From Patescibacteria group bacterium (GTDB lineage Bacteria > Patescibacteriota > Patescibacteriia > UBA9934), in the NCBI GenBank assembly GCA_041660165.1, contig JBAZWW010000001.1, forward strand, positions 169,035-233,034: a stretch of DNA of 64,000 nt, in the 5' to 3' direction. The notes beneath the pieces were generated by a model that was not told where the DNA came from, did not search any database, and was given only the letters and a program-made list of their open reading frames with translations. Position numbers and translations under genes: made by a program. Below are positions 5,536 to 36,710 of this stretch, piece after piece; the first letter of the stretch is position 1, and every line of letters starts with the position of its first letter.

Positions 5536-7118
5536 AAACCATTCTTAAAGAATTTCCTGAAGTATACCAGGGCCGGCTTAAGGGGTGAATACTCGTGATC
5601 AACAGCCTTCACTGTGACTATTTTTCCGCTCGCCCAGCTGTAGAAAATTACTGGTAAAAGGATAAGGCTGAGGCCAAGAGGGTGATTCAAATAAGGGGTG
5701 AAGATATGCGTCACCAGCACAAAAATAATCATCGAAATCATCCCGACAGGGATCCATCTGTCAGCAGATCCTTTTTGTAAAAGATACATTGTAGCGTTAG
5801 CAAAAGAGACGGCAATCGCAAGAACACCCAGAAGGCCGAACACACCCATTTTCAACCAAAGATCCTGATAGCCCCACTCGAATCTGTAGGTAGTCCACTC
5901 TCCAGTTCCATTAATAGCTCTCACTCTCGGATCATCAGATACGAACGTCACTTCTTTCCCAAACCCCGCTCCAATAATTGGCGACTTCATGATCTCGACC
6001 ATCATTGGCGGTAACAAATTCCAACGGCTCGACACAGCTAGTTCGCGCGCTCCCCCATCATCTCCTTTATAAAAGGGGCTGGCCGTAAAGTCAGGCCGAA
6101 TCGGCAACGGGAAAACAACAATGAGCCATAACAACCCTATGGCCGAGCATTGCATGAGACCGAGCACAAATGATCGCAGAACAATCGTCTTCAGCTTTGC
6201 TCGAGTAGCAACGAGCAAAATGATGAACACGAGCGCGCCAATGACCGCGCCGATCATAAAACTTCGGGACAAGCTCGCAGAAATGCCAGCAAGAAGAACG
6301 GCGTGAACAAGCCAAATGTTCTTCTCGATCTTCTCCGAAAAATACGTAGCCGAAGCAAAGATGAACTCAAAAGCAAGAACCACAATTTGGCTCTGCTCGA
6401 ATACTCGGAAGTACCAAGCACCCGTTGGGAATAAACCGGCGAGAGAACTCGGCGCTGTTAAGATGGTGATCTCGGCCAACCGCGCGTCCCGCACAAACGT
6501 GTAGAGATGCGAGAGGAACTTGCCGGGCAAATGCGTAAAGGCGAACAGAAGGCCGAGCGTTGACAAGGCAACCCAAACTGCCGAGACCGCCAGGGTCATC
6601 AGCATCAAGCGCTTCTTCTCACCGTCCCAAGCGATCGAGAGAATCGGCAAGATGTAGAGCACCAAGAGATACGAATTAAAATCGTCAAAGGCCTTGCCCG
6701 GTTCGTTCTGCAGAAAACCAACAATCCCGCCGAGCACAATCGCCGTACCGAATATAATCCACGGCACGTCTCGTCGAGGATTCAATCGCAGTGTCATCCT
6801 GAGCCCGTTCGACGGGCGAAGGATCTGAATTATCCATCCCAGCATCACCCCACCGAATATCACCATCCGAATGGACACCGGCAGACCAATCGACGACAGA
6901 TCAAACAAATGCCCGTGGCCACCAACGAATATCTCGAGGAATGCGAAGGCAAGTCCCCACTCAAGACGCTTAATTGAGAGACCGAGCGCCACCACGAACC
7001 CCGCGGATACGGGAATAATTGACCACCAAGAATGCTGGACAAGCACAGCCAAAAGATGCGCGCCTAGAAGACCGACGAGTACGTACAGTGATCGTTTGTC
7101 GAAGAATTGAGATAGCAT
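5532..7118 (-). CDS. O-antigen ligase (Wzy_C) family polytopic membrane protein
   Basis: About 12 TM helices and an SLSRSFMIGAVIG motif resembling the Wzy_C TxSRgaWlal signature. Start taken at Met22 of the ORF-track protein (MLSQFF) to avoid overlap with the DUF2207 gene. Contains an in-frame repeat-derived segment (see findings). Confidence 0.55.
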   Translation of the reverse strand: MLSQFFDKRSLYVLVGLLGAHLLAVLVQHSWWSIIPVSAGFVVALGLSIKRLEWGLAFAFLEIFVGGHGHLFDLSSIGLPVSIRMVIFGGVMLGWIIQILRPSNGLRMTLRLNPRRDVPWIIFGTAIVLGGIVGFLQNEPGKAFDDFNSYLLVLYILPILSIAWDGEKKRLMLMTLAVSAVWVALSTLGLLFAFTHLPGKFLSHLYTFVRDARLAEITILTAPSSLAGLFPTGAWYFRVFEQSQIVVLAFEFIFASATYFSEKIEKNIWLVHAVLLAGISASLSRSFMIGAVIGALVFIILLVATRAKLKTIVLRSFVLGLMQCSAIGLLWLIVVFPLPIRPDFTASPFYKGDDGGARELAVSSRWNLLPPMMVEIMKSPIIGAGFGKEVTFVSDDPRVRAINGTGEWTTYRFEWGYQDLWLKMGVFGLLGVLAIAVSFANATMYLLQKGSADRWIPVGMISMIIFVLVTHIFTPYLNHPLGLSLILLPVIFYSWASGKIVTVKAVDHEYSPLKPALVYFRKFFKNGL

Positions 7119-7119
7119 A

Positions 7120-8895
7120 TTACCAACTCCCTCCCCCGCCACCGCCCGAACCACCGCCCGACGAACCACCAGAAAACCCACTGCTCGAATGCGGAACCGA
7201 GCTTGTCACCACCTGGCTCCATGAATTATTCAACTGCGCCAGGTTATGCGTCAGCAACATACTTGAAAACGCTCCATGGTTGGCATCCTCATACCACGTT
7301 GGCGCGGTCTTATAGAGCCCCTCAAACTTCGTGGCCCACTGTTCCTCAGCCCCCAACACCATAGCGTACGGCAAGAACTTTTCAAACATTTCCGGCTCCA
7401 GCTTTGGCGCGTTCAAGAGCTTCAGCTTGTCCATCTCCGTCAGCTTCAAAAATTCCTGGAAGCCAGCAATCTTTGCTTGCGCGTCAGCTCCCTTTGGCGT
7501 CAATTGGTTTGTCAGCCGGCCGGAAATCATCATGCGAATAATCACAAACGCCACAATCGGGAACATGAGAAGAATGCCAAGCCCGGCGGTCAAGAAACTT
7601 ACAATGACCGTGCCCACAACCAGGACCGTTGAAATAATCGCCAGCTGTTTATTCATCTTGTCTGCCTTCTCCTTGGCGGAAATATCGAAATAACCCGCAG
7701 TCCGCAAATGCTCCTCTGTCTTGGCCGTAATGTCTTTAATCTGATCCTCGTAATCAAGAGCCTTCTCCATGAGATCACTGACGAGTATGCTCGAACGTTT
7801 GTCGAACAACATATCAAACAAAATCTTCTCACCAGGATGCTTCAACGATGAACCTTCCTTAAGTTTGACGAGCTCAAAATCTTTTTTATCAGGCCAAAAC
7901 GGAATCTCCTTTACGGTATAGCGAATTTTCAGGTAGCCTCGAACAGCGAGATCAAGGATGATCGATGAAACATCTTTCCTATCAACGGATCTATCGAGTA
8001 TTGTGCCCACATCAATCGGCGCCAAACCGTTCGGCGGTTCATACGCCACCACCACCGGCCCTTTGTATCCAGGCTTTGAGAAAATCCTTGAAATAGCAAA
8101 CACGATGAAGCCAATAAGAGAAATGATGAACAAAAGCGGAATTAACAGAAATAACCAATCAGTGCCGGACACCGTAATGTCCTGAATCGTGGAACGCAAT
8201 CCGTCGCTCGGAATAACAGTATCATTCACAATGCCAAGCGGAATGCCGAGTACAATTGTTAAGCCCTCGCCGGCCTCCAGCGGTTTGGTGGTGAAATAAA
8301 TCGCCTTCCCCGGGAAATCAGCCGGCGTGCATTGCTTGTCAGTGCTACCTGCCGGACCAGTAAAACAATCTACCTGCTCAGCCACTGCTGGACCAGGCAC
8401 AAAAACAGAAGCCGAGGCCTTTTTTATCCCTACCGGCCAACCGTTACCCGTCACATTCCAATACAGCTCGTCATGATCCTCAAATGGCCGAATGACATTC
8501 GTCACCGTGTAATCAATCACATACGTCTTCACTCCGCTCACTGTCTTGTTCGCCTCACCGATTTTAAGGTCGAGTATGCTGTTATTCGTTGACTCAACAT
8601 AATGGTACGGCTGGCCGTTTCCGTCTTTCACACTATTCACGCTGATGCCAATGTCAGGGCCGTCAACTGCGGTCAGCGGAATATCGCGAAAAATTCCGTG
8701 CTTCTGATTATCGCCAAAGTTATATTCAATGATCTCGGTCACCTGAATTGCGCCGTCCGCCTGGAGCACGATTGAGGAGGTAAAGTTATCAATCACCTCA
8801 TCACTCGCGTACGCGTTTGCATGAACCGCGAAAAATGCGAAAACGAAAACTCCAAGCGCGCACGCGATTCTGGCAATGCTTCGCTCAGGTTTCAT
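7120..8895 (-). CDS. DUF2207 domain membrane protein
   Basis: Signal peptide, extracellular domain, TM helices and a glycine-rich C-terminus (SGGSSGGGSGGGGGGSW). Lies downstream of LemA, as is typical. Confidence 0.75.
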   Translation of the reverse strand: MKPERSIARIACALGVFVFAFFAVHANAYASDEVIDNFTSSIVLQADGAIQVTEIIEYNFGDNQKHGIFRDIPLTAVDGPDIGISVNSVKDGNGQPYHYVESTNNSILDLKIGEANKTVSGVKTYVIDYTVTNVIRPFEDHDELYWNVTGNGWPVGIKKASASVFVPGPAVAEQVDCFTGPAGSTDKQCTPADFPGKAIYFTTKPLEAGEGLTIVLGIPLGIVNDTVIPSDGLRSTIQDITVSGTDWLFLLIPLLFIISLIGFIVFAISRIFSKPGYKGPVVVAYEPPNGLAPIDVGTILDRSVDRKDVSSIILDLAVRGYLKIRYTVKEIPFWPDKKDFELVKLKEGSSLKHPGEKILFDMLFDKRSSILVSDLMEKALDYEDQIKDITAKTEEHLRTAGYFDISAKEKADKMNKQLAIISTVLVVGTVIVSFLTAGLGILLMFPIVAFVIIRMMISGRLTNQLTPKGADAQAKIAGFQEFLKLTEMDKLKLLNAPKLEPEMFEKFLPYAMVLGAEEQWATKFEGLYKTAPTWYEDANHGAFSSMLLTHNLAQLNNSWSQVVTSSVPHSSSGFSGGSSGGGSGGGGGGSW

Positions 8896-14055: not shown

Positions 14056-14544
14056 TCAGTCCTCCGCGGGATCTTCTTCGAGGATGAAGTAAGACTCCGC
14101 TTCTTCGATGTCAATCACGTGGGTACCCACGTAGTCAATTTCGGCCGTTTTGATGCTAACGCGCATCTCTACGCCGTCCACAAGTTCGCGGTCACCGTCT
14201 GCGTAGTGCCAGCTGAGCGCGAGTGTCGTAGCCGGGGCCATGATCTGGTCAAACACGAGCGACAGCAGAAGATCGCCGTCCCGGTCTTCGTCGTTCTCGA
14301 CGAAGAAGGAGTGCAGATCAATCAGCTGATCCTTGGCGACCAGTTGTGGCTGAATGCTGTTCTCGAACTCGTAGTTTTCCTCGCCCGAGGTCGCGTTGAC
14401 GTCGAGCGATACCCGAACCATGTCGTCCGCCGCGCTCAGAAAGGTGACGAGTGAAAAGGTCACGTCGTCCTTCACGGTGAGACCATCCTCACACTGTACA
14501 TTCTCCACCACCGCCCCATCTGCCTTCCACACAACGATCTTCAT
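14056..14544 (-). CDS. hypothetical acidic protein
   Basis: ORF with a strongly acidic composition; no motif recognised. Confidence 0.4.
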   Translation of the reverse strand: MKIVVWKADGAVVENVQCEDGLTVKDDVTFSLVTFLSAADDMVRVSLDVNATSGEENYEFENSIQPQLVAKDQLIDLHSFFVENDEDRDGDLLLSLVFDQIMAPATTLALSWHYADGDRELVDGVEMRVSIKTAEIDYVGTHVIDIEEAESYFILEEDPAED

Positions 14545-20484: not shown

Positions 20485-20871
20485 TTATGTCTTTGTAAGA
20501 ACACGTCGGCCGCTTCCTGCAGTCTTACGGACGTTTCCGCGAACGGTGCGGGAGTTGCTCTTTGTACGCTGACCTCTGACCGGCAAACCCTTGGCGTGGC
20601 GCTGGCCACGGCGGGCGCCAATGTCTTTCAGACGCTTAATATTCGAAAGAATCTCGCGTCTGAGTTCGCCCTCAACATGGAACTCCTTTTCCACAATAGT
20701 GCGGATAGCGTTCTCTTGATCCGCCGTCAAATCTTTGACGCGAATGCTCTCATCTACACCGGCCTTTTTAAGGACCTGGGCAGCACGCGTCTGGCCAACT
20801 CCAAAAATGTATTGGAGGGCAATGACAATGCGCTTCTGATTCGGAATGGTGACACCAGCGATACGTGCCAT
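20485..20871 (-). CDS. rpsM: 30S ribosomal protein S13
   Basis: [26 protein letters not shown]; start set at this Met rather than the longer ORF-track start. Confidence 0.93.
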
Positions 20872-20875
20872 AAGG

Positions 20876-20989
20876 TTAGCCTTGACGTTGCTTATGTTTC
20901 GGAATCTTGCAAATGACGCGAACACGTCCTTCCCTTCGGATGACGCGACAGTCACGGCAGATTGGTTTCACAGACGAGCGGACTTTCAT
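20876..20989 (-). CDS. rpmJ: 50S ribosomal protein L36
   Basis: Manual translation of the minus strand gives [37 protein letters not shown] (37 aa). This is below the ORF-track size cutoff and sits in the canonical infA-rpmJ-rpsM position. Confidence 0.85.
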
Positions 20990-21063
20990 AATATAAATGC
21001 GTTTCAGTACGCAAAATCATCCTAAAAAACGGATGATTCTGTAGAAGCTAGAGATGCCATCCG

Positions 21064-21279
21064 TTAAAAACGGAATGTGATTCTAGCCTTGGTGAGATCA
21101 TAAGGACTGATCTCACACTTGACGTCATCTCCCGGCATGACCCGGATGCGGTTCTTGCGCAGTTTGCCTGCCAAGTACCCAATGACTTCCATGTCGTTCT
21201 CTAAGGTAATGCGGAACGCACCACCTGGGAGCGCTTCCAACACCTCACCTCTCATCTCAAGAAAATCTTTTTCGGGCAT
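21064..21279 (-). CDS. infA: translation initiation factor IF-1
   Basis: [71 protein letters not shown]. Confidence 0.9.
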
Positions 21280-21474
21280 AGCCGAAGTAAATATACTAGA
21301 GATTGCAGGGGTTAGGCAAGCAAATGCTCCATAGGAAAGCGGGGGAAGTGTACTTGGCGCAGTAATTAGTGTCAAGAAAAGGCTGTGGAGGCTTACCAAA
21401 AGTGGACGAATCCGTTATTAAATGACAAACTTTGCCAGCCTTATTGGCGAGTAACCCTGAACCGTGAGGACATC

Positions 21475-22443
21475 ATGGGTACCAAGAAAGAAACCGACAC
21501 CACGATCCCCGTCGAGGAATACGTCAGGCAGTTCCGGGAACGGGGTTGGTGCCAGCTCGAAGATCGGGATGACGACGGAGACACCGCCGCCCGCAAGTGG
21601 TTCGATCGCATCTGCGATCCGAATCTGACCTATGAAGAGGCAACGCATCTCTTGGGCTTAGCGTTTCTCGGAGAACGCGATCGGAACAAATCCATCGTTC
21701 GTTTTCTTATGGGGATCGCCCGGTTCCCGGATATCGCCCATGGCGAGTACAACAACGCCGGCGATCTGAGCGGAAGCCTGCAGGAATGGGCGTACGGCGT
21801 ACTCGTCGACGCCGAATTCCTGTGGCAATCAAACGACAAGGAAAACGAAGACTGGTCCCTGGACCGCGAAATCATCGCGTTTCTCCGCACCAGGTTCGAT
21901 CGGCGCAGGGAAAAGGCCGTGCGCAAGGTCGTGCGCAGGTACCTCGAGTTCGACGCCGGGAATTCCGGTGACGAATCGGACGCACGCCGTTATGAGAACA
22001 TCACGACCATGGTTCCGAGCCTGCTCGTGCTCGCAGTCCTGAACGGCAAGCCGAAGAAAAGCGGGCTTTGGCCAGACGCGAAGTACATGAACTCCGAACG
22101 ATTCGGTCACATTTACGAGGCGCGCCAAACGGCAATCGTGAAAGCGCTCGAAGCCATTGTGTTCGGCAACGGCAGGGTGGTCCGCTCGCAGATCGCGACC
22201 GGCACGATCCCAAATGAATACACCTGGGCCGTTCAAGAGCTGATGCTCTACTATCCGCGACGGGCTAAGGAGATCAGGGAACGGCTCGATGGATTTGCGA
22301 ACGAGCTGAGCATGAACGCTCGCCAAGAATACAAGAACGGCAAGCCGTTGTCCGAGATCATCACGACACTGAAGGTCGGCGACAAAGAGATCAACCTCAA
22401 GGCGCTCGAAGACGAGCTGGCCCAGCTCCCCACCTTCCGCTAG
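21475..22443 (+). CDS. hypothetical protein (GC-rich, likely foreign origin)
   Basis: Start chosen at an ATG preceded by a GAGGA Shine-Dalgarno. High GC3 codon usage unlike the neighbours. Followed by a GACCCCGT...ATGGGGTC hairpin terminator. Confidence 0.5.
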   Translation: MGTKKETDTTIPVEEYVRQFRERGWCQLEDRDDDGDTAARKWFDRICDPNLTYEEATHLLGLAFLGERDRNKSIVRFLMGIARFPDIAHGEYNNAGDLSGSLQEWAYGVLVDAEFLWQSNDKENEDWSLDREIIAFLRTRFDRRREKAVRKVVRRYLEFDAGNSGDESDARRYENITTMVPSLLVLAVLNGKPKKSGLWPDAKYMNSERFGHIYEARQTAIVKALEAIVFGNGRVVRSQIATGTIPNEYTWAVQELMLYYPRRAKEIRERLDGFANELSMNARQEYKNGKPLSEIITTLKVGDKEINLKALEDELAQLPTFR

Positions 22444-22587
22444 GCCTCAACAACGTCAGCCACGTCTCCGTGAAGACCCCGTCCGCACCGCTGTGCAGAT
22501 GGGGTCAAATTGTTTCAAAATTGGACGGAATCTCACTTTTTCGCCATAATCCGCCGGCCGAATCAACCTACTCCCTTGGAGGATTCA

Positions 22588-23346
22588 ATGGCCCTGATGG
22601 GAACCGGTAACGAACCGGCCTTCAAACGTTCCGCGCTACTGTTGGCAAGCTTTGTCACCGACAAAGATAATGAACATTCCGTCTTGCTCGATCACCCGCA
22701 TAACATCATGCTCAACTGGCCGATGCGGAGTTGTGCGGACGTATGGAATGAAGGCGCCAAGGCTCGTCCAATGATTCTCTGCGAACTCATCGAGAGACTT
22801 GAGTGCGCAACCTCGTGGCCCGGTGAACGGAGCTCGAACGAAGAGGGATTCCTCCGGGAATGCTTCCAGAGAATTCGGCCGGAGACCCCGGACCTGATGG
22901 TGGCGATTGAGCACGCACTGCCCGCGCTCATCCGCCTGGTGTTCGAGCGTCATCCGGACGTTCACATCTGGAGGAAGGCCGACGAGGTGGCCACGGTGGC
23001 GGGGATCAAGCTCCGCGACGATTGGAATGAACTCGTCCTTGCAACGCTCGAAGATTACGTCCGCATGAATGAAAAGGTTCTGCGTAAAGATCTCATCGCC
23101 AGGCGAATCGATAAGATCGAGCGCCGGCGGGCCGTGGACGTGCTCATCGTAGCGTTCGTGCGCAAGAGGCACGATCTGCAAGTCAGGATTGACGCGATCA
23201 ACGCGCACCTGGCTGAGCTTGCACAAGACCTCTACTGGGAGAACGCAACGTCGAGAGAAGCGAAAGCGGCCAAACGCCCGTTCGTGAAGGAGCTGAATGA
23301 GCTGATGCTCGAACTCAACTCCCTTCCGCTCCTCGACAGACTCTAG
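22588..23346 (+). CDS. hypothetical protein (GC-rich, likely foreign origin)
   Basis: ATG preceded by a GGAGGA SD. The same terminator motif as the upstream gene lies at 23380-23430. Confidence 0.5.
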   Translation: MALMGTGNEPAFKRSALLLASFVTDKDNEHSVLLDHPHNIMLNWPMRSCADVWNEGAKARPMILCELIERLECATSWPGERSSNEEGFLRECFQRIRPETPDLMVAIEHALPALIRLVFERHPDVHIWRKADEVATVAGIKLRDDWNELVLATLEDYVRMNEKVLRKDLIARRIDKIERRRAVDVLIVAFVRKRHDLQVRIDAINAHLAELAQDLYWENATSREAKAAKRPFVKELNELMLELNSLPLLDRL

Positions 23347-23473
23347 CCGATCAAGAACGTTCGACTGCTCGTCAATTCTCGTGACCGAAGACCCCGTCCG
23401 CCCGCGCGCGAATGGGGTCGTACTGTTTTATATAAGACTCTTATTATATTAGATGCTTATATAATCCCCTCGG

Positions 23474-24334
23474 CTATATTTTATTACTGGATTCAAAATG
23501 ACGAACCGCATACTCGACAATCGCCTTGGCCACATCAATACCAGTAGTTTGTTCGAGTGTTTTGAAACCAGGATTCGCGTTTACCTCCATGATGAGCGGA
23601 CCGCAGTTTGAGCGCAAAATGTCTACGCCGGCAATGTCGAGGTTCATCACTCGTGTAGCTTTAATCGCGAGCTCGCGTTCCTCGGCGGTCAGCTCAACCG
23701 ACTGGCCAGTCCCGCCGGCATTGCTCCGCACATCCCCCGCCGGGGCGTCTAGTTGCATGGACGCAATAACCTCGTTGCCGATGACAAAGGCTCGGATGTC
23801 CGAGTGATTAGCCTCGGCAATAAACTCTTCGACAATAAATGGATTCTGGTCGCGCACCGATAAATAATCGGTGATTGGTTTCATCACTTCCTCGCTCGGC
23901 GCAAAAAACACACCCTTGCCTCTGGTACCGAATGGGACTTTTATCATCACCGGAAAACCCAGCTCTCGTGCACAACTCGTAGCCGTCCACGTATCCTGTA
24001 CTATCGCGCCTTTCGGCATCGGAATTCCGACATCGAGCAGGTCAAGCCTCTGCAATAATTTATTTTTCGTGCGCAACACTTGGCCGTTCACTAATCGAAT
24101 ACCGGACGCTCGCAGTCCGTCATAAATCGCCTGGTGGTGCGACGGTTCTTCCGTAAAATTTGGTCGAACAATAATGACGTCAAACCTCTTCAGCTCGTCT
24201 CTCGGCGGGATCGAAATCGAGCGCTCATATACTCGAACAGCTTCATGCCCCAAAGCCCGCACCGCTTCTTCAAGCCGTGATGCTCCAGAAAACTCTTCAA
24301 ATTGTTCATTAGAAACCAAAATCCCAACGCGCAT
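23474..24334 (-). CDS. rimK: RimK-family ATP-grasp ligase (alpha-L-glutamate ligase-like)
   Basis: ATP-grasp motifs (PVMIKVPFGTRGKGVF, IVEEFI, GVDILRS..GPLIMEVNANPGF). Confidence 0.75.
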   Translation of the reverse strand: MRVGILVSNEQFEEFSGASRLEEAVRALGHEAVRVYERSISIPPRDELKRFDVIIVRPNFTEEPSHHQAIYDGLRASGIRLVNGQVLRTKNKLLQRLDLLDVGIPMPKGAIVQDTWTATSCARELGFPVMIKVPFGTRGKGVFFAPSEEVMKPITDYLSVRDQNPFIVEEFIAEANHSDIRAFVIGNEVIASMQLDAPAGDVRSNAGGTGQSVELTAEERELAIKATRVMNLDIAGVDILRSNCGPLIMEVNANPGFKTLEQTTGIDVAKAIVEYAVRHFESSNKI

Positions 24335-24381
24335 ATGGTCTAACCGTAGCGCATCGGAATAATGATGGCAAACAACGCTCA

Positions 24382-25356
24382 CTATTGAGCAGGATGAAAA
24401 TCATCCTCCGTCTTCGTAATGTGCAGAGGAGAATAACAACCATGTACTACGTCACCGTCTGGTTGCTGTTTAAGCTCAACCCACATTTTTCCAGCCACAG
24501 CTGGATCAATACCTACTCCGGTCGGAATAGTCTCGCCAAGTGATACATGATAGGCACCATCCTTCATAGGGGTAACACTGGCCTCGTATGATTTTAATCC
24601 TTCGAGAATTTCCTTTGAGCCGCCATCAACGGCGAAAATATGGCATGTGCTAACTCCGGCAAAAGGACGGTCATCTCGAACCTCGGTTCCAATGTAACGC
24701 CCGGTAACATACCCGGCAGTTGGAGTGACGGCCAATCTGAGTGAATTTTTGACGAGCAACCAGTTCGGATCGTTGGCCTCGTTTGGTTTTTCGTACTCAT
24801 ATCTCACTTCATAGCCACCGATAAACAAAACCTCCTGATATCGCGGAATGAACACCGCATCGTCAGTGGCAGTCAAACGCAGGCGAGTTACTTTTTGCCC
24901 GTTAATAGTGATTTCGTCGGAAAGATATTCTTTGTACTGATCTCGTTCGTACGGCGCATAAATGGCCTCGCCCTCATCCTGGGCGTACACGCTGATTCCC
25001 CCACTCATTGTCGAACCCTCTGCCGGACTATGCATCTCAATTGGATTCGGGCTGATACGAGCTGTAAATTCCGGTAGAACGCGCTTTGGGTTATCGTAAA
25101 TGGCCGTAGTGAAGACATGCCAACCCTCAGGATATTGCAATGACAGTTTGCCAACAGCAAGCGTATGCGGTTCGCTTGAAGTAGATACCAGCGAGTTCGT
25201 GCTCGTCGAGATTACATTCGGAATCTGCGTTGCTACGAGGAGCGACCCGAATGCGAGGCCGACAACGGAGCCGAGCAGGATGCCCGGAATAAAATGGGCA
25301 AGAAAGAGAGATTTGGGTTGCATATGCGGGAAGTATACACGAATCCAATCCGCCAC
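24382..25356 (-). CDS. hypothetical secreted / membrane-anchored protein
   Basis: N-terminal TM/signal segment (FLAHFIPGILLGSVVGLAFGSLLVA); no known motif. Confidence 0.4.
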   Translation of the reverse strand: MADWIRVYFPHMQPKSLFLAHFIPGILLGSVVGLAFGSLLVATQIPNVISTSTNSLVSTSSEPHTLAVGKLSLQYPEGWHVFTTAIYDNPKRVLPEFTARISPNPIEMHSPAEGSTMSGGISVYAQDEGEAIYAPYERDQYKEYLSDEITINGQKVTRLRLTATDDAVFIPRYQEVLFIGGYEVRYEYEKPNEANDPNWLLVKNSLRLAVTPTAGYVTGRYIGTEVRDDRPFAGVSTCHIFAVDGGSKEILEGLKSYEASVTPMKDGAYHVSLGETIPTGVGIDPAVAGKMWVELKQQPDGDVVHGCYSPLHITKTEDDFHPAQ

Positions 25357-25413
25357 CTCTAGATCCTTCGCCTACGCTCAGGATCGAATACCACGCAACG
25401 CCACATACAAATA

Positions 25414-27189
25414 TTATCCGAGGATCGCCTTAATTCTCCGCACGCCCGATGACACTGCTTCTTCTTTTTGGATTTTGAATCCGCCAAGTTCGCCAGTATG
25501 TTGCACGTGGGGGCCGCCACAGATTTCTTTCGAGTAATCACCAATGGAGTAGACGTTTATCTTGCCTCCGATATTGGCGTACTTGTCCTCAAACAATCCG
25601 ATCGCACCACTAGCTTTCGCTTCTTCAACAGTCAACTGCTCAGCCTTCACGGGCATGTCTTTTTTGATCTGCTCGTTGACAATGGCCTCAACTTTTGCCA
25701 ACTCGTCCGGCGTCATCTTGGTGTTGTGCGAGAAGTCGAAACGCAAACGCTCGGCAGTAATGTTGCTGCCCTTCTGTTCAACATGGGGACCGAGAACGTC
25801 GCGCAGAGCTTGATGCAAAATGTGCGTCGCGGTGTGTAGGCGAGTTGTTTCGATGGAATGGTCAGCGAGACCACCGGCGAATTTCTTTTCGGCACCTTGG
25901 CGAGAAAGGTCCTGGTGCTTCTTGAACTCGGCAGCGAATGCTTCACGATCAACCTCTTGACCTTGTTCGTGCGCCAGCTCGTGTGTGACCTCGAGCGGAA
26001 AACCGTACGACTGGTAAAGGTTGAACGCATCCTCGCCGGAAATTGCCTTGTTGCGCTCGAACATCTTCTGGAATTCCCTCAGTCCTTGGGCGAGTGTCTT
26101 CTCAAATTTCTTCGCCTCAGTTTCTATGCCGAGAACTATCGCGTCTCGTTTTTCGATCAGCATTGGATACGCCTCGCCGAGGGACGCCACAACATCATCA
26201 ACAATCGGCGGAACGAGCTTGTCGGATTCGATGCCCAGCTTCTTCGCGTGACGGATCGCCCGGCGGATGAGACGACGCAGGATGTAACCCTGGTCCTTGT
26301 TTGATGGCTCGACACCATCCATAAACATGATCGAGGAAGCTCGAAGGTGATCGGCGATGATCCTCATTGACTTGGTTGTCTCCGGCGCTGCGCCATATTC
26401 CAAACCGGATAAATACATAAGAGTCTTATGTAATCCGGTGAACAATTCCGTCTCGTATACATTCGCGCGGTGTTGTAACGCAACGATCGTGCGTTCCATG
26501 CCCATACCGGTGTCCACACTGCCGTTTACAAGCGGGGTTAAAACCCCGCCTTCGTCCTTGTTGAATTGCATGAACACGTTGTTCCAAATTTCCATCCAGC
26601 GATTGTCTTTTGGATCGTAAACTGCTGGCGGTTCTTCAGCACTGGTCCAATAAAAAATCTCCGTGTCCGGTCCGCACGGACCAGTTTTCCCCGCTGGTCC
26701 CCACCAGTTGTCCTCGCGGCCGAGTTTTGCAATGCGCTCGACGGATACGCCAAGACGAATCCAATGATCGTATGCCTCTTGGTCAAATGGCGTGTTCGCG
26801 TCGCCTTCGAAAACTGTAAATGACAAATGCGATAACGGGATGTTGAGCCAATCCTTGCTCGTCAAAAACTCGAATGACCACTCGATAGATTCTTTTTTGA
26901 AATAGTCGCCGAGCGACCAGTTGCCGAGCATGGTGAAAAAAGTGAGGTGCGTGTTATCACCCACGTCATCAATGTCGCCGGTTCTGATACAGCGCTGGTA
27001 ATCAACCAAGCGCTTGCCCGCCGGGTGAGGCTCGCCGAGCAAATACGGGACGAGCGGATGCATGCCCGCCGTGGTAAAAAGCACAGTCGGATCATTCACC
27101 GGCACCACGGAGGCGGAGGGAATCTCCACGTGGCCCTTCGATTTGAAAAACTCAATGTACTTTTTGCGGAGCTCATTCGCGGTGATCAT
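25414..27189 (-). CDS. alaS: alanine--tRNA ligase, short form lacking the C-terminal C-Ala domain
   Basis: MITANELRKKYIEFFKSKGH, FTTAGMHP and GNWSLGDYFK in the catalytic core, and the editing-domain HTATHIL...CGGPHV. About 590 aa from the proper Met. Confidence 0.9.
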   Translation of the reverse strand: MITANELRKKYIEFFKSKGHVEIPSASVVPVNDPTVLFTTAGMHPLVPYLLGEPHPAGKRLVDYQRCIRTGDIDDVGDNTHLTFFTMLGNWSLGDYFKKESIEWSFEFLTSKDWLNIPLSHLSFTVFEGDANTPFDQEAYDHWIRLGVSVERIAKLGREDNWWGPAGKTGPCGPDTEIFYWTSAEEPPAVYDPKDNRWMEIWNNVFMQFNKDEGGVLTPLVNGSVDTGMGMERTIVALQHRANVYETELFTGLHKTLMYLSGLEYGAAPETTKSMRIIADHLRASSIMFMDGVEPSNKDQGYILRRLIRRAIRHAKKLGIESDKLVPPIVDDVVASLGEAYPMLIEKRDAIVLGIETEAKKFEKTLAQGLREFQKMFERNKAISGEDAFNLYQSYGFPLEVTHELAHEQGQEVDREAFAAEFKKHQDLSRQGAEKKFAGGLADHSIETTRLHTATHILHQALRDVLGPHVEQKGSNITAERLRFDFSHNTKMTPDELAKVEAIVNEQIKKDMPVKAEQLTVEEAKASGAIGLFEDKYANIGGKINVYSIGDYSKEICGGPHVQHTGELGGFKIQKEEAVSSGVRRIKAILG

Positions 27190-27595
27190 AGATGAGAAAA
27201 GAGTAGCGTAACTTGCAAACTTTCGCAATAAATACAAATGCCGTATGACCCGCGCCGTCTGTGGCAGGCCAAACGGCATCGCGCAAACGAGCGCGTTACT
27301 CCCTGAATCTTCCGACAGCCCAGACAAAGGCCGAAACGAAAGAAAGGAAACCGAGGAGGACGACGACGCCGAGCACCACGTCGCTCGGTGACGAATGGTA
27401 ATCGCCAGCCGGACTGTACGGCAAATCCGGAAACGCGTTCGCAACGGAAACGAAAAACTGGAGCACGGACACCTCCTGGAGCGATCTTAACAGACTCGCA
27501 AGTATTTTCAACTGTCCAAAAACACAACCGCGCCCGCAGTCGAACTCCCCGTTTGGGAATCCTGGCCACGAGCGCAGTACGCGCGGACGTACGAA

Positions 27596-28648
27596 CTACA
27601 GATCGTCAGTCATTCCGCGAAGCCTCTGAGTCGTCCCGAACCGATTCATGGTCAGGACAACGCTGACGCAGTGGGGCGCGTACCCCAGCGTCTTCCGCCA
27701 AGCGATAATGGCCGTCCGCAGTGCACCGCACATTGTCGTCTCGAACACCGTATCAACCTGATCCTTTGTCTTCCCGTCGTCGTCGTACTCGACGATGACG
27801 TTCAGAATCAGGCAGTGATCCACGGCGTGCTCGAACACCACTTTCGTAGCGGAGAGCGGGGCCGTCTTCAGCATGAGCTCCAGCGCCGGAAGCTGTTCGT
27901 CGAGAGTCGCCAACCGCTCAGTCATCAGCACCGCCATTTGTCGGGCAGACGCGGACGCGTTCGTGGCGCCGGTAGCCGTCAAAAACGGAGCGATCATTCG
28001 GAAGTCATAAACCGCGTCAGCAAGACTCCGATTCTTCGCCCAAGCAACAGCCAAGGCGTCAAACATCCACTGCGCACCGTTACAAAGAGACTGCTTGTTC
28101 GCCACCCTGCTCTCCGCCCACAGGTAGGTCGTCAAAATCCTCTTTGGACTAATCACGCCGAGCTTGAATTCCTCGCGAACGGCGTCCATGGTGATCCGAG
28201 CAATATCGCCGTCGATGCTAGCGATGCTCTGCCAAACGCAGGCAAAAAGACGCTCGGCCTCCGTGTCATCAGTGGTTTGTTTCCACCGCTGGATGATCCA
28301 CTTGACCAAAGCCTGTCTTGCCTTCGGAAGCGAGTGATTCAGTTGCCCGAGCGCCTCCGCATAAAGCCGAGTGAAGACGATGCTCAGCCGGGCATCTATT
28401 GCTCTCTGAACGTGGTCAGAAATACGCCAACCCTCAACGTCCATCACCCTATACTCCGTCTCCTGCCCAACCTTACGCACATAGCCCATGAGACGGAGCG
28501 CCAGCTCATCGTCGTTCGGACCCAACTCTCCGAAGAGCCAAACCAGTGCCTCAAGCGGGGTCCTATCGCCACCAGCCAGGCAACGAAATACGAAGTGGTC
28601 GCCGTTGTCCGTCATTATCTTTTGCAACAGCACAAACCGCTTATCCAT
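27596..28648 (-). CDS. hypothetical protein (GC-rich)
   Basis: ORF; it shares a loose LFGE...RLMGYVR-type motif with the 21475 protein. Confidence 0.45.
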   Translation of the reverse strand: MDKRFVLLQKIMTDNGDHFVFRCLAGGDRTPLEALVWLFGELGPNDDELALRLMGYVRKVGQETEYRVMDVEGWRISDHVQRAIDARLSIVFTRLYAEALGQLNHSLPKARQALVKWIIQRWKQTTDDTEAERLFACVWQSIASIDGDIARITMDAVREEFKLGVISPKRILTTYLWAESRVANKQSLCNGAQWMFDALAVAWAKNRSLADAVYDFRMIAPFLTATGATNASASARQMAVLMTERLATLDEQLPALELMLKTAPLSATKVVFEHAVDHCLILNVIVEYDDDGKTKDQVDTVFETTMCGALRTAIIAWRKTLGYAPHCVSVVLTMNRFGTTQRLRGMTDDL

Positions 28649-28762
28649 TTTCACTCCCTCCGGCCACAACCGGATATATGCCGGGGCCGCAACCCCGGTC
28701 TGGTTATGCCCTCCCGCAAGAGGACAGGTATTTTATAGCCCCGTTAAAAAAGTTTTGCAATT

Positions 28763-30385
28763 TTACGTCGTCACATTCCCCATGTCCCCCACCTCAGCGG
28801 GTCTCGCCGATTTCAAGAACTTACCCTGCAGGCCAGAAATAATACTACGCAGTTCCGGACTCTTCATGAAATAAGCTGAGAGCAAGTAGACGCCTCCGCC
28901 CAGGATGCTCGACAAAGAAAACTGGATAAAGACGTGGGCAAAGGTGTCGAGTTCGAACAGTTGCACTAAACCGTACTTCACGCCTTGAGTAACGAACGCA
29001 CACAAAATTCCAGCCAGAGAAAAAATGAACAGCGAGTAGGCAATTTTTCTTTCGTCGAGTCCGCCAAGTTTGCGGTGCAGTAACACCCAGAGAAAGGCGG
29101 TTTCGATCATTGAAGAAACCGAGAAACCGATCGCTAGGCCGAAAATTCCGTACGCATGTGAGAGCGGGAGGGCCAGGCCGGCGGTGAGTACGCAACCAAT
29201 GACCGCAAAGATGAAAGGCGTGGTTGAGTCCTCCATGGCGTAATACGCTCGAATCAAAATATACGTAGCGGACTGCGCAAAGAAACTGAGCGCAAAGATG
29301 GCGAGCGTATCCGCAATGATGGTGGTGCTCCCCCAATCAAGGCCTTCAGAACCGTAGACCACGCGCACAATTTGCGCTCGCAAAAGCAAAAAGAGAACGG
29401 TAGCAGGAATCATGAAAAACATAACCTGGCGCATGGTCAGCGAGAATGACGCGCGCATGCCGGCAATATCTTTCTCTGCCAGCCGTTCGCAAAAAGTGGG
29501 ATAGGCCGCAATCGCATACGACACCGCGATAATTCCGATCGGTACAAAATTGAGCGTGTAGGCGAGGGTTAAATTCGTGACAGAACCAGCCACGCCGAGC
29601 GTGGCGATCACGCTCATAATCAGAAACTCGGCTTGATTCACGGCCAGCCCCACCACGCGCGGAATGGTTTGCTTGGCCGTGACAAGGAGATCAGGATCCT
29701 TCAGTCTAATATACGGCTGATAGCGGTAGCCAATGGCAATTGCGCCAACCAGCTGAACGAGCATGTGAAGAGCAGAGCCGATGACCACGCCCCAGGCCAA
29801 GCCAATCGGCCCCATGACCGGCGTCAAAAACACCGCGCCAATAACAATGCCGGCGTTGTACACAATCGGCGCAAAGGCGGGCAGGAAAAATCGCTTCACG
29901 CCCTGGAGCACGGAACCAAAAACAATACTCGCCGCAAAGAATAATTGCCCCAAGAAAATAACGCGCGTCATGTTCACTAGCGCCGAAAGTTTATCGGCCG
30001 ACCAGGTTGGAGCAAGGAGAGGCGCAATCTGCGGAGCGAATAAAATAGCCACCGCCGATAGCACCGCAAACAAAACGATCACCACGTGAAGCACATTGTT
30101 CGTGTACTTCCAAGCCCTGGTCTTATCATCCGTTACCCACGCCTTAGTGAAGAGCGGGATAAAACTCGCCGACACCGCACCAACCACCAGCAATTGAAAA
30201 AACAAATCCGGCAAACGAAACGACTGATAGTAAATGTCCAAGGTACTCGAAAGATTAGGCGGAAAAACAGAGATGAGAATACGGTCGCGCAAAAGTCCCG
30301 CAAAGCGGGACAGGAGGGACATTGCGCCAACAATGAAGGCCGCGGACGCTACCGTGGTTGAGGACTGGAAAAGCCTGCGGATCAT
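28763..30385 (-). CDS. murJ: lipid II flippase MurJ
   Basis: The N-terminus (ASAAFIVGAMSLLSRFAGLLRDRILISVF) matches the MurJ/MviN signature; about 14 TM helices. Confidence 0.85.
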   Translation of the reverse strand: MIRRLFQSSTTVASAAFIVGAMSLLSRFAGLLRDRILISVFPPNLSSTLDIYYQSFRLPDLFFQLLVVGAVSASFIPLFTKAWVTDDKTRAWKYTNNVLHVVIVLFAVLSAVAILFAPQIAPLLAPTWSADKLSALVNMTRVIFLGQLFFAASIVFGSVLQGVKRFFLPAFAPIVYNAGIVIGAVFLTPVMGPIGLAWGVVIGSALHMLVQLVGAIAIGYRYQPYIRLKDPDLLVTAKQTIPRVVGLAVNQAEFLIMSVIATLGVAGSVTNLTLAYTLNFVPIGIIAVSYAIAAYPTFCERLAEKDIAGMRASFSLTMRQVMFFMIPATVLFLLLRAQIVRVVYGSEGLDWGSTTIIADTLAIFALSFFAQSATYILIRAYYAMEDSTTPFIFAVIGCVLTAGLALPLSHAYGIFGLAIGFSVSSMIETAFLWVLLHRKLGGLDERKIAYSLFIFSLAGILCAFVTQGVKYGLVQLFELDTFAHVFIQFSLSSILGGGVYLLSAYFMKSPELRSIISGLQGKFLKSARPAEVGDMGNVTT

Positions 30386-32412: not shown

Positions 32413-32489
32413 TGGTGCGTCCAGCACGATTCGAACGTGCGGCCTCTTCCTTCGGAGGGAAGCGCTCTATCCATCTGAGCTATGAACGC
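32413..32489 (-). tRNA. tRNA-Arg (anticodon CCG)
   Basis: Hand-folded cloverleaf: acceptor GCGTTCA/TGGACGC, D-stem GCTC/GAGC, anticodon stem CTTCC/GGAAG with loop CTCCGAA, T-loop TTCGAAT, encoded CCA. Confidence 0.88.
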
Positions 32490-36023: not shown

Positions 36024-36710
36024 ATGATCAGTCTGACGTTCCTTTCCTTGAGTGCCCTGGCCGGCGGAGGCGGAATCAAGTGGGCGGATCTGGGCGATTC
36101 CTGCCTGGGCCCATCCCCCTTCACCCCGAACTCGGGCGCATGCTGTGAACCCATGCTCCGTGCGGACTTCATGTCTGCCCGTTGCGTGAATGTCCCTGCG
36201 CTCCTCTCGGACATTGAGGACAACGCGTTCATCCAGATGAACGTCGGGGGCAAGGTGCGAATCTACTGGGTGAAGGACGGCGAACGCCATCTCATCCCTG
36301 ACAAGAGCACCGCCGAGAGCTGGTTCTCGGACCGCGGGAACGAGCTGTGCGAGCAGGTCTACAGCGTCCCCGCCTTGCTCGGCGAAACCACTCCGGAAGG
36401 TAACCACGTCACGCTCCGGCCCGGCAGTGGGATCATCAAGATCTCGTCCGAAGCCAAGCTGTATGTGGTCGAAGAACCGTCAATCCTCCGACGGATCACC
36501 TACGCGCAGGCAGAGGACATCTACGGGCCGTCCTGGATCCTGTACGTCCGAACTGTGAACGACTTCACGTTCTTGGACTACTGCATCGGACCAGACCTCA
36601 TGGCCGGCGAGCCGTACGACTGGCAGACCGTGTCGGACGGCGCCATGCTCTCTGACGCCGTCGGAGTGCCGATCTGTCCGCGCGCTGACAGAAACGAATC
36701 GTTACCGTAG
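36024..36710 (+). CDS. hypothetical secreted cysteine-rich protein
   Basis: GGAGGA SD before the ATG, signal peptide MISLTFLSLSALAGGGG, and 10 Cys residues. Confidence 0.45.
   Translation: MISLTFLSLSALAGGGGIKWADLGDSCLGPSPFTPNSGACCEPMLRADFMSARCVNVPALLSDIEDNAFIQMNVGGKVRIYWVKDGERHLIPDKSTAESWFSDRGNELCEQVYSVPALLGETTPEGNHVTLRPGSGIIKISSEAKLYVVEEPSILRRITYAQAEDIYGPSWILYVRTVNDFTFLDYCIGPDLMAGEPYDWQTVSDGAMLSDAVGVPICPRADRNESLP

Follow-up and report, generated by a model that had tools for sequence, protein, structure and literature searches.

Loci of tandem, clade-restricted and fast-diverging genes are common in genomes of the candidate phyla radiation (CPR, or Patescibacteria), and the clade-specific uncharacterised families of these small-genome organisms are typically confined to a narrow clade and without a match in Pfam, NCBIfam or the Protein Data Bank (PDB). 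Tandem arrays of fast-diverging paralogues are also found at recombination hot spots, as exemplified by the orphan immunity-gene arrays of polymorphic toxin systems, which serve here as an analogy only. Here, we describe a locus that shares features with both, located in a 64,000-nucleotide stretch of the metagenome-assembled genome of a Patescibacteria group bacterium (contig JBAZWW010000001.1 of assembly GCA_041660165.1, positions 169,035 to 233,034 of the forward strand; hereafter the window, in whose coordinates positions are given unless another locus is named). The locus consists of two genes, gene 1 (21475-22443) and gene 2 (22588-23346), lying in the slot between rimK and infA.

The family to which these genes are assigned resembles other CPR clade-specific families in its small-genome host, its narrow distribution and its lack of Pfam, NCBIfam or PDB matches, but differs in being tied to a single chromosomal slot, with tandem paralogy, changes in copy number and mosaic alleles, and in that conservation is greater in the non-coding ends than in the coding sequence. 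The resemblance to orphan immunity arrays lies in the tandem arrangement of strongly diverged paralogues predicted to be small, soluble and helical, in a copy number that varies between strains, and in the apparent exchange of segments by recombination, whereas the surroundings of the gene pair showed no toxin gene, no secretion-system gene and no known immunity family. We consider it likely that the pair represents old, strongly diverged paralogues of a clade-specific family that forms a variable array in this one slot, on the strand opposite its neighbours. The host clade is a group of Uhrbacteria-like Patescibacteria.

Both genes were first noticed in an annotation made from the sequence alone (the first-pass annotation), and the two open reading frames (ORFs) and their placement on the strand opposite the ribosomal neighbours are confirmed. 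Gene 1 (plus strand) encodes a protein of 322 amino acids ending in ...ELAQLPTFR and represents a 'long' subfamily. Gene 2 (plus strand), titled 'hypothetical protein [Patescibacteria group bacterium]' in the source record, encodes 252 amino acids ending in ...ELNSLPLLDRL, represents a 'short' subfamily, and is hypervariable over codons 161-240. To the left, and divergent from gene 1, is infA (21064-21282, minus strand; Pfam eIF-1a, E = 3.7e-19), which belongs to a minus-strand block of rpsI, rplM, rplQ, rpoA, rpsD, rpsK, rpsM and infA ending at 21282. To the right, and convergent with gene 2, is a rimK-family ATP-grasp ligase gene (23474-24382, minus strand; Pfam RimK, E = 1.1e-42), with genes 1 and 2 opposite in strand to infA, the ribosomal genes and rimK alike. 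A strong GGAGG Shine-Dalgarno site had been described for both genes; gene 2 does have GGAGG 5 nucleotides ahead of its ATG codon, whereas the corresponding sequence of gene 1 is GAGGA. In the case of gene 1, a GTG codon at 21385 would provide an alternative start and a protein of 352 amino acids, and the ATG at 21475 is favoured because of the Shine-Dalgarno site and the N-termini of homologues.

Related loci were retrieved by means of the neighbouring rimK gene. In all nine relatives with a contig that reaches infA (or, for L067, the first ribosomal gene), infA is preceded by rimK, as part of a gene order that runs murJ, alaS, a variable membrane protein, rimK, infA, and rpsM onward. In this clade, then, the gene normally found upstream of infA is rimK, and no conserved cluster has been newly broken by the gene pair. 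The first-pass annotation had expected map-adk-secY upstream of infA and had read the two genes as an interruption of a conserved ribosomal/infA cluster, neither of which agrees with the order found in the relatives. The slot is empty (about 90-180 bp) in L005, L006, L057/L058 and the P0013 and P0015 loci; it holds one opposite-strand gene in L062, in L063-L065 and in L004, where that gene is an orthologue of gene 2; and it holds two opposite-strand genes in L061, as in the window. In L059, a 110-amino-acid remnant of the family sits beside ddl (6893-7858, minus strand), a D-Ala-D-Ala ligase gene with a G+C content at third codon positions (GC3) of 0.70, and the slot can therefore also house unrelated genes.

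The occurrence of the family is not in line with relatedness. Going by rpoA, alaS and ribosomal proteins, the window is as near to L005 as it is to L057 and L059, and of these three only L059 has a family member, while the more distant L063 also has one. The rimK gene itself is unusually divergent, being 55% identical between the window and L005 (10001-10912), as compared to 88% for rpoA, 90% for alaS and 93% for infA, and this incongruence suggests recombination across the region. In empty loci (L057 6830-6880, L005 10890-10940), the last codons of rimK and its stop codon overlap the -35 element TTGACA of infA. A similar sequence, ctccacagcc-ttttcTTGACA, is retained in the window as non-coding DNA beside infA (21355-21400), and may be left over from the site of the first insertion. 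A promoter scan places a promoter-like site for infA, TTGACA-N17-TACACT, together with the conserved flank ctccacagcc, at 21347-21390 on the minus strand, forming the left edge of the slot.

The slot genes constitute a previously undescribed family of at least eight members that is restricted to the clade and rapidly diverging. For instance, L061_329 is 23% identical to gene 1 over 283 amino acids (E = 2e-7) and is itself matched by its neighbour L061_331 (E = 4e-6), L062_201 is 49% identical to gene 2 over 117 amino acids (E = 6e-32), and L059_110 matches the C-terminal part of gene 2 (E = 8e-4). One protein, L063_261, matches both subfamilies (L062_201, E = 4e-8; L061_329, E = 3e-7). Alignment with hhalign of the profile of the gene 1 group (A2) to that of the gene 2 group (A3) gave a probability of 93.4% and an E-value of 2.6e-7 over 152 columns, pairing residues 125-275 of gene 1 with residues 51-205 of gene 2. 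Because of this profile-profile match and the matches among homologues, genes 1 and 2 appear to be distant paralogues of one family, for which pairwise comparison is suggestive. The alignment of the eight members (A4) contains no conserved stretch of 7-10 columns, and its profile, when run over all DNA examined, found members in the rimK-infA slot only.

No homologue outside this small clade was found in the protein libraries, Pfam, PHROGs, PADLOC, NCBIfam, the PDB or the phage collections. In agreement with the first-pass statement that neither protein has recognisable motifs, genes 1 and 2 have no match in Pfam, PHROGs, PADLOC or NCBIfam (no PADLOC family at E <= 1, and nothing in PHROGs below E = 0.1), and searches of Pfam with all eight members and of the PDB with the A4 profile returned nothing significant. 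A word-seeded search of 5.8 billion proteins gave no match to gene 1 other than gene 1 itself and a single match to gene 2 (P0003, 81% identical). A phmmer search of 1.84 billion representative sequences, made with gene 1 only, again recovered gene 1 itself only; the relatives that it missed are too diverged, or absent as representatives, for a whole-library E-value. No relative was found by tblastn against 50,697 phage records or in scans of IMG/VR, and a literature search gave nothing relevant.

The contents of the slot also differ between close strains. A contig from another sample, L004, is 96% identical to the window over infA, but in it the orthologue of gene 2 directly adjoins infA and the gene 1 unit is missing. 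By blastn, positions 1-434 of L004 correspond to 20956-21390 of the window (95.9%) and positions 435-1323 to 22522-23409 (84.7%), with the 1131-bp gene 1 unit of 5' box, gene 1 and terminator (21391-22521, plus strand) found in the window and not in L004. Both genes are present, with identical sequence, in three independent assemblies, and the two-gene state is therefore not an assembly artefact. The gene 2 alleles of the window and L004 are mosaic. Over codons 1-160 they differ at 6% of nucleotides (dS, synonymous divergence, 0.23; ratio of nonsynonymous to synonymous divergence, dN/dS, 0.10), over codons 161-240 (240 nucleotides) at 39% (dN 0.46, dS 0.91), beyond which conservation resumes in the final 12 codons and the terminator. 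That dN/dS is low over codons 1-160 shows gene 2 to be genuine and constrained, while the fourfold higher dS of the variable block points to recombinational import of a divergent allele, and not to mutation alone.

A hairpin is shared by the 3' ends of the two genes, and was identified by pattern match, folding and alignment at 22472-22506 (GAAGACCCCGTCCGC..ATGGGGTC, plus strand) after gene 1 and at 23387-23419 (plus strand) between the convergent gene 2 and rimK. The 15-mer GAAGACCCCGTCCGC is identical at 22472-22486 and 23387-23401, and the hairpin begins 28-40 nucleotides past each stop codon. The pattern GACCCCRT..AYGGGGTC occurs exactly twice in the 64 kb, as compared to 0.01 occurrences expected from shuffled sequence; a 44-nucleotide local alignment of the two 3' motifs scores 42, against 16 +/- 2.3 for shuffles (about 11 standard deviations above); and both hairpins fold in context at about -20 kcal/mol or better. 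Apart from its T-rich part, the 3' motif described in the first-pass annotation is confirmed. Downstream of family genes in L004, L061 (both copies), L062 and L059, and also of partial genes in L068 and L069, the hairpin takes the form CCCCGYCCGCG..CTGGYGGGG, with one stem position shifting from C-G to U-G to U-A among relatives to give one compensatory pair. As a rule, 4-7 consecutive T residues come after the hairpin in relatives. The hairpin is absent from the empty loci, and an Rfam search of 20800-23700 gave no match at either hairpin. On sequence grounds, this structure has the features of an intrinsic (rho-independent) terminator and is predicted to act as one.

The contigs L068 and L069 are short, and have the closest rimK among the relatives (78-79% identity). 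Their partial gene, convergent on rimK (L068 1076-1254 and L069 913-1045, minus strand), ends in ...VEHAKPAKSVLTP or ...IEHAKRVEAPEPAPPPADEPPPP before the stop codon and not in LPxF, but the same GAAG(A/G)CCCCGTCCGC hairpin still comes after it; this gene is either a variant of the family or a different gene with the same terminator.

The 5' ends of the units also share an element. Upstream of gene 1, the box CAAAAGTGGACGAATC (21397-21412, plus strand) was found by alignment as a copy of a -35-like family promoter element, aligning to 22516-22532 with a score of 21 against 13 +/- 2.1 for shuffles. Upstream of gene 2, the box CAAAATTGGACGGAATC and a CATAAT together form a promoter-like site, TGGACG-N17-CATAAT (22516-22550, plus strand), found by a promoter scan and kept in L004. 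The two boxes lie about 70 nucleotides before the start of the respective gene. A TGGAC/TAGAC(R)AA box follows the infA promoter region in L004, L059, L061, L062 and L063; in all occupied loci, the T(G/A)GAC(R)AA box adjoins that region, and in several of them a plausible -10 element is positioned 17-18 nucleotides downstream of the box. The unit ends are highly similar (about 85% identity for the terminator) while identity between the paralogous proteins falls to 15-28%. The repeated motifs fit ordinary promoters and intrinsic terminators, both predicted, that were copied along with duplicating units; as inherited ends of duplicated units, box and terminator are therefore not marks of a mobile cassette. 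Of the first-pass proposal that the shared 3' motif reflects two genes arriving as a duplicated or modular cassette, the duplication is retained, whereas joint arrival is at odds with L004, which has gene 2 without gene 1.

How such an array might change can be outlined as follows. Each copy would be a self-contained one-gene unit, consisting of the -35-like box T(G/A)GAC(R), a Shine-Dalgarno site, an ORF and a G+C-rich hairpin terminator. Copy number would shift between 0, 1 and 2 by unequal or illegitimate recombination at the repeated junctions, and alleles would become mosaics by homologous recombination. The high GC3 of the slot genes could then result from recombination-associated GC-biased gene conversion, a process that at a recombination hot spot would account for such values.

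A different origin, favoured by the first-pass annotation, would be the recent import of both genes together from a donor of higher G+C content, as a defence, toxin or phage-derived module. The codon usage that prompted this idea is real, GC3 being 0.75 for gene 1 (z = 2.3) and 0.71 for gene 2 (z = 1.7) against a mean of 0.593 (standard deviation 0.071) for 59 ORFs in the window, an increase of about 2 standard deviations. The overall G+C content of the two genes (0.53-0.57) is barely above that of about 0.52, and GC1/GC2/GC3 values of 0.60/0.39/0.75 represent an ordinary coding pattern. Also consistent with import are the opposite strand, the lack of homologues outside the clade among the 5.8 billion proteins (both genes) and 1.84 billion representatives (gene 1 only), the several relatives without the genes, and the changes in copy number and mosaic alleles that are common for conflict genes. 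When occupancy of the site is scored as for a genomic island, the genes are absent from L005, L006, L057/58, P0013 and P0015, and homologues are present in L004, L059, L061, L062 and L063. However, homologues only 23-49% identical occupy the same slot with the same GC3 excess, and show no drift to host composition. In relatives, the family members have GC3 values of 0.70-0.79, with the exception of L062_201 (0.56), as compared to 0.44-0.68 for their neighbours, and the excess, being found in diverged homologues, is therefore a lasting trait of the slot and not a sign of recent import. In addition, gene 2 occurs without gene 1; PADLOC, PHROGs, the 50,697 phage records and IMG/VR hold nothing related; and neither integrase, transposase nor flanking tRNA is found within +/-10 kb. 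There is no Pfam match to an integrase or transposase among the called genes in that interval, and the nearest tRNAs are at 32413 and 57138. Nor is the hairpin a widespread cassette signal. A scan of metagenome contigs gave 36 exact-pattern matches, of which only the L004 contig is related, the other 35 being chance matches or unrelated terminators in high-GC DNA. We therefore regard recent import as unlikely. The genes are indeed lineage-restricted accessory genes, with rimK abutting infA in several relatives, as the comparison of synteny proposed in the first-pass annotation made clear, but that comparison also revealed homologues at the same slot, on the same strand, with the same GC3 excess and mostly with the same terminator, and a defence, toxin or phage origin finds no counterpart in the searches above.

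The architecture of the units is also reminiscent of integron gene cassettes, with one ORF per unit, an imperfect inverted repeat at its end, and gain or loss of the whole unit between strains. On such a model, the hairpin would be a recombination site at which a site-specific recombinase shuffles units, which could explain why a conserved imperfect hairpin and a 5' box bound units with different coding parts, and why L068 and L069 have a different C-terminal coding end before the same hairpin. Yet the boundaries ...GGGGTCaaattGTTTCAAaat|TGGACG and gtggag|GCTTACC contain no GTTRRRY/RYYYAAC core site of the attC type, and no integrase-like gene (intI) is present among the genes of L001, which covers 12588-33346 of the window. 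Unlike integron cassettes, each unit brings a promoter-like box and a Shine-Dalgarno site of its own, all units are homologous to one another and not unrelated genes, and the array occurs at one locus only, while the T-run after the hairpin in relatives is that of an ordinary intrinsic terminator. A cassette system of this type is very improbable. Still less credible is a diversity-generating retroelement (DGR) as the source of the hypervariable block in gene 2. DGRs are common in Patescibacteria, and what one would look for is a variable block like this one, 240 nucleotides long, sharply bounded and close to the 3' end of a gene that is conserved elsewhere, but substitutions in the block are of all types (G>A 18, A>G 15, T>C 13, C>G 10, etc.) and not adenine-specific, which argues against a DGR. 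Moreover, the dS of 0.91 is elevated as well, which is what the import of a divergent allele would produce, no copy of a template repeat is present within 21000-29000, and no reverse transcriptase is found within +/-10 kb.

The reading that we prefer, of old paralogues in a variable array, has points of its own against it. The link between genes 1 and 2 comes from small profiles of 3 and 4 sequences, and the direct pairwise comparison of the two is non-significant (E = 0.011 to 0.06). The patchy distribution could stem from repeated lateral exchange between relatives in place of inheritance and loss, and the intact end of rimK overlapping the infA promoter in empty loci argues against simple loss. 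A clean deletion between the two 5' boxes was considered as the origin of the L004 state and rejected, as the junction leaves 12 nucleotides (gcttaccaaaag) unaccounted for. The T-tracts after both hairpins of the window, described as T-rich in the first-pass annotation, are weak or degraded, and a simple terminator scan called neither. Lastly, the structure models of the two proteins are unreliable, with predicted local distance difference test (pLDDT) values of 43-47.

These models were built with AlphaFold2 from single-sequence and two-sequence input (pLDDT 42.7 and 47.4). Both proteins are modelled as all-alpha at low confidence, the confident part being a C-terminal helical hairpin only. 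The structural comparison suggested in the first-pass annotation gave no match, as Foldseek searches of the PDB with both models found nothing below E = 1, the models being too poor for a meaningful fold search. The family proteins, predicted to be cytoplasmic, are hydrophilic, without a transmembrane segment or signal-like stretch, and acidic in the case of gene 1 (isoelectric point 5.6, with most members at 5.0-6.2). Apart from the start methionine, four columns are invariant across the eight members (A, E, L and P), the best-kept motifs being ALE.YV and AVD.LI.AYVR, and the extreme C-terminus reads LP(K/T)F, SLPLL or SLPTL, a short LP-x-hydrophobic tail. No conserved set of catalytic-type residues is found across A4. 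The all-helical prediction and the motif RID..ERRRAVD.LIVAYVR, which resembles the GDERAVEPLIKALKDED repeat, recall HEAT-like repeat proteins (alphaRep, PBS-lyase), and the best PDB match of the A4 profile is an artificial alphaRep HEAT-like protein, at a non-significant E-value of 0.68 (12 bits). The family has no Pfam HEAT or ARM match, and the models are too poor for a repeat fold to be judged from them.

As a working guess, the family members may be non-enzymatic helical binding or adaptor proteins with a fast-evolving partner-binding end, their partner being one that would change rapidly, as in a genetic conflict. A role in conflict, such as an interaction with phage or host, has a rather small chance of being correct. 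Improbable, too, is the more specific idea of a new conflict-related module, for instance an adaptor by which episymbiotic Patescibacteria sense phages or interact with their host; in such a module, the specificity region (the C-terminal helical hairpin) would be swapped between strains, and whole units stacked or dropped with promoter box and terminator as recombination handles. If true, such a module would represent recombinase-free shuffling of cassettes at a fixed chromosomal slot beside translation genes.

A second fast-evolving family lies beside the slot. The protein of 324 amino acids that adjoins rimK (24382-25356, minus strand) begins with 40-50 residues that include a hydrophobic, membrane-anchor-like stretch, and this N-terminal part is 64-89% identical across relatives, while the remainder is unalignable or very diverged in most of them (L057_343 is 51% identical over its full length). 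The counterparts are at L057 4076-5962 (two tandem copies), L059 5129-5956, L061 776-1372 and L062 214-1185. Further along, gene 3 (27596-28648, minus strand) encodes 350 amino acids, has a GC3 of 0.71 and matches no family. It had been described as loosely similar to gene 1, a relationship that we reject given a BLASTP E-value of 24 and an hhalign probability of 0.3%. Gene 3 is missing between murJ and alaS in L005, L057 and L059, where a 42-56-amino-acid ORF or a 311-bp gap is found. Two other GC3-rich ORFs, at 14056-14544 (minus strand, 0.73) and 36024-36710 (plus strand, 0.81), have no match in PHROGs, PADLOC or NCBIfam (nor in Pfam, searched for 14056-14544 only), each has its own distinct G+C-rich terminator hairpin, and they may be additional lineage-specific genes.

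On the other side of the slot, an ORF for rpmJ (L36) is not evident between infA and rpsM in the window (20872-21063); one is present at this position in L067, and L057 has a 38-amino-acid ORF after rpsI. The 3' side of infA in the window has a hairpin of its own, AATCATCC-N7-GGATGATT, and at the start of rpsM (20839-20894, minus strand) Rfam returns the Alpha operon ribosome-binding-site leader below threshold (23 bits, gathering score 38, E = 0.016).

For the biology of these organisms, the comparison of relatives removes a false lead, as the locus is not a foreign defence island that splits a universal operon. Loci of this kind are candidates for genes of symbiont-host or phage conflict, with a wider significance that is limited as long as a function is lacking, and in uncultivated Patescibacteria they are of use for tracking recombination and the diversity of strains.

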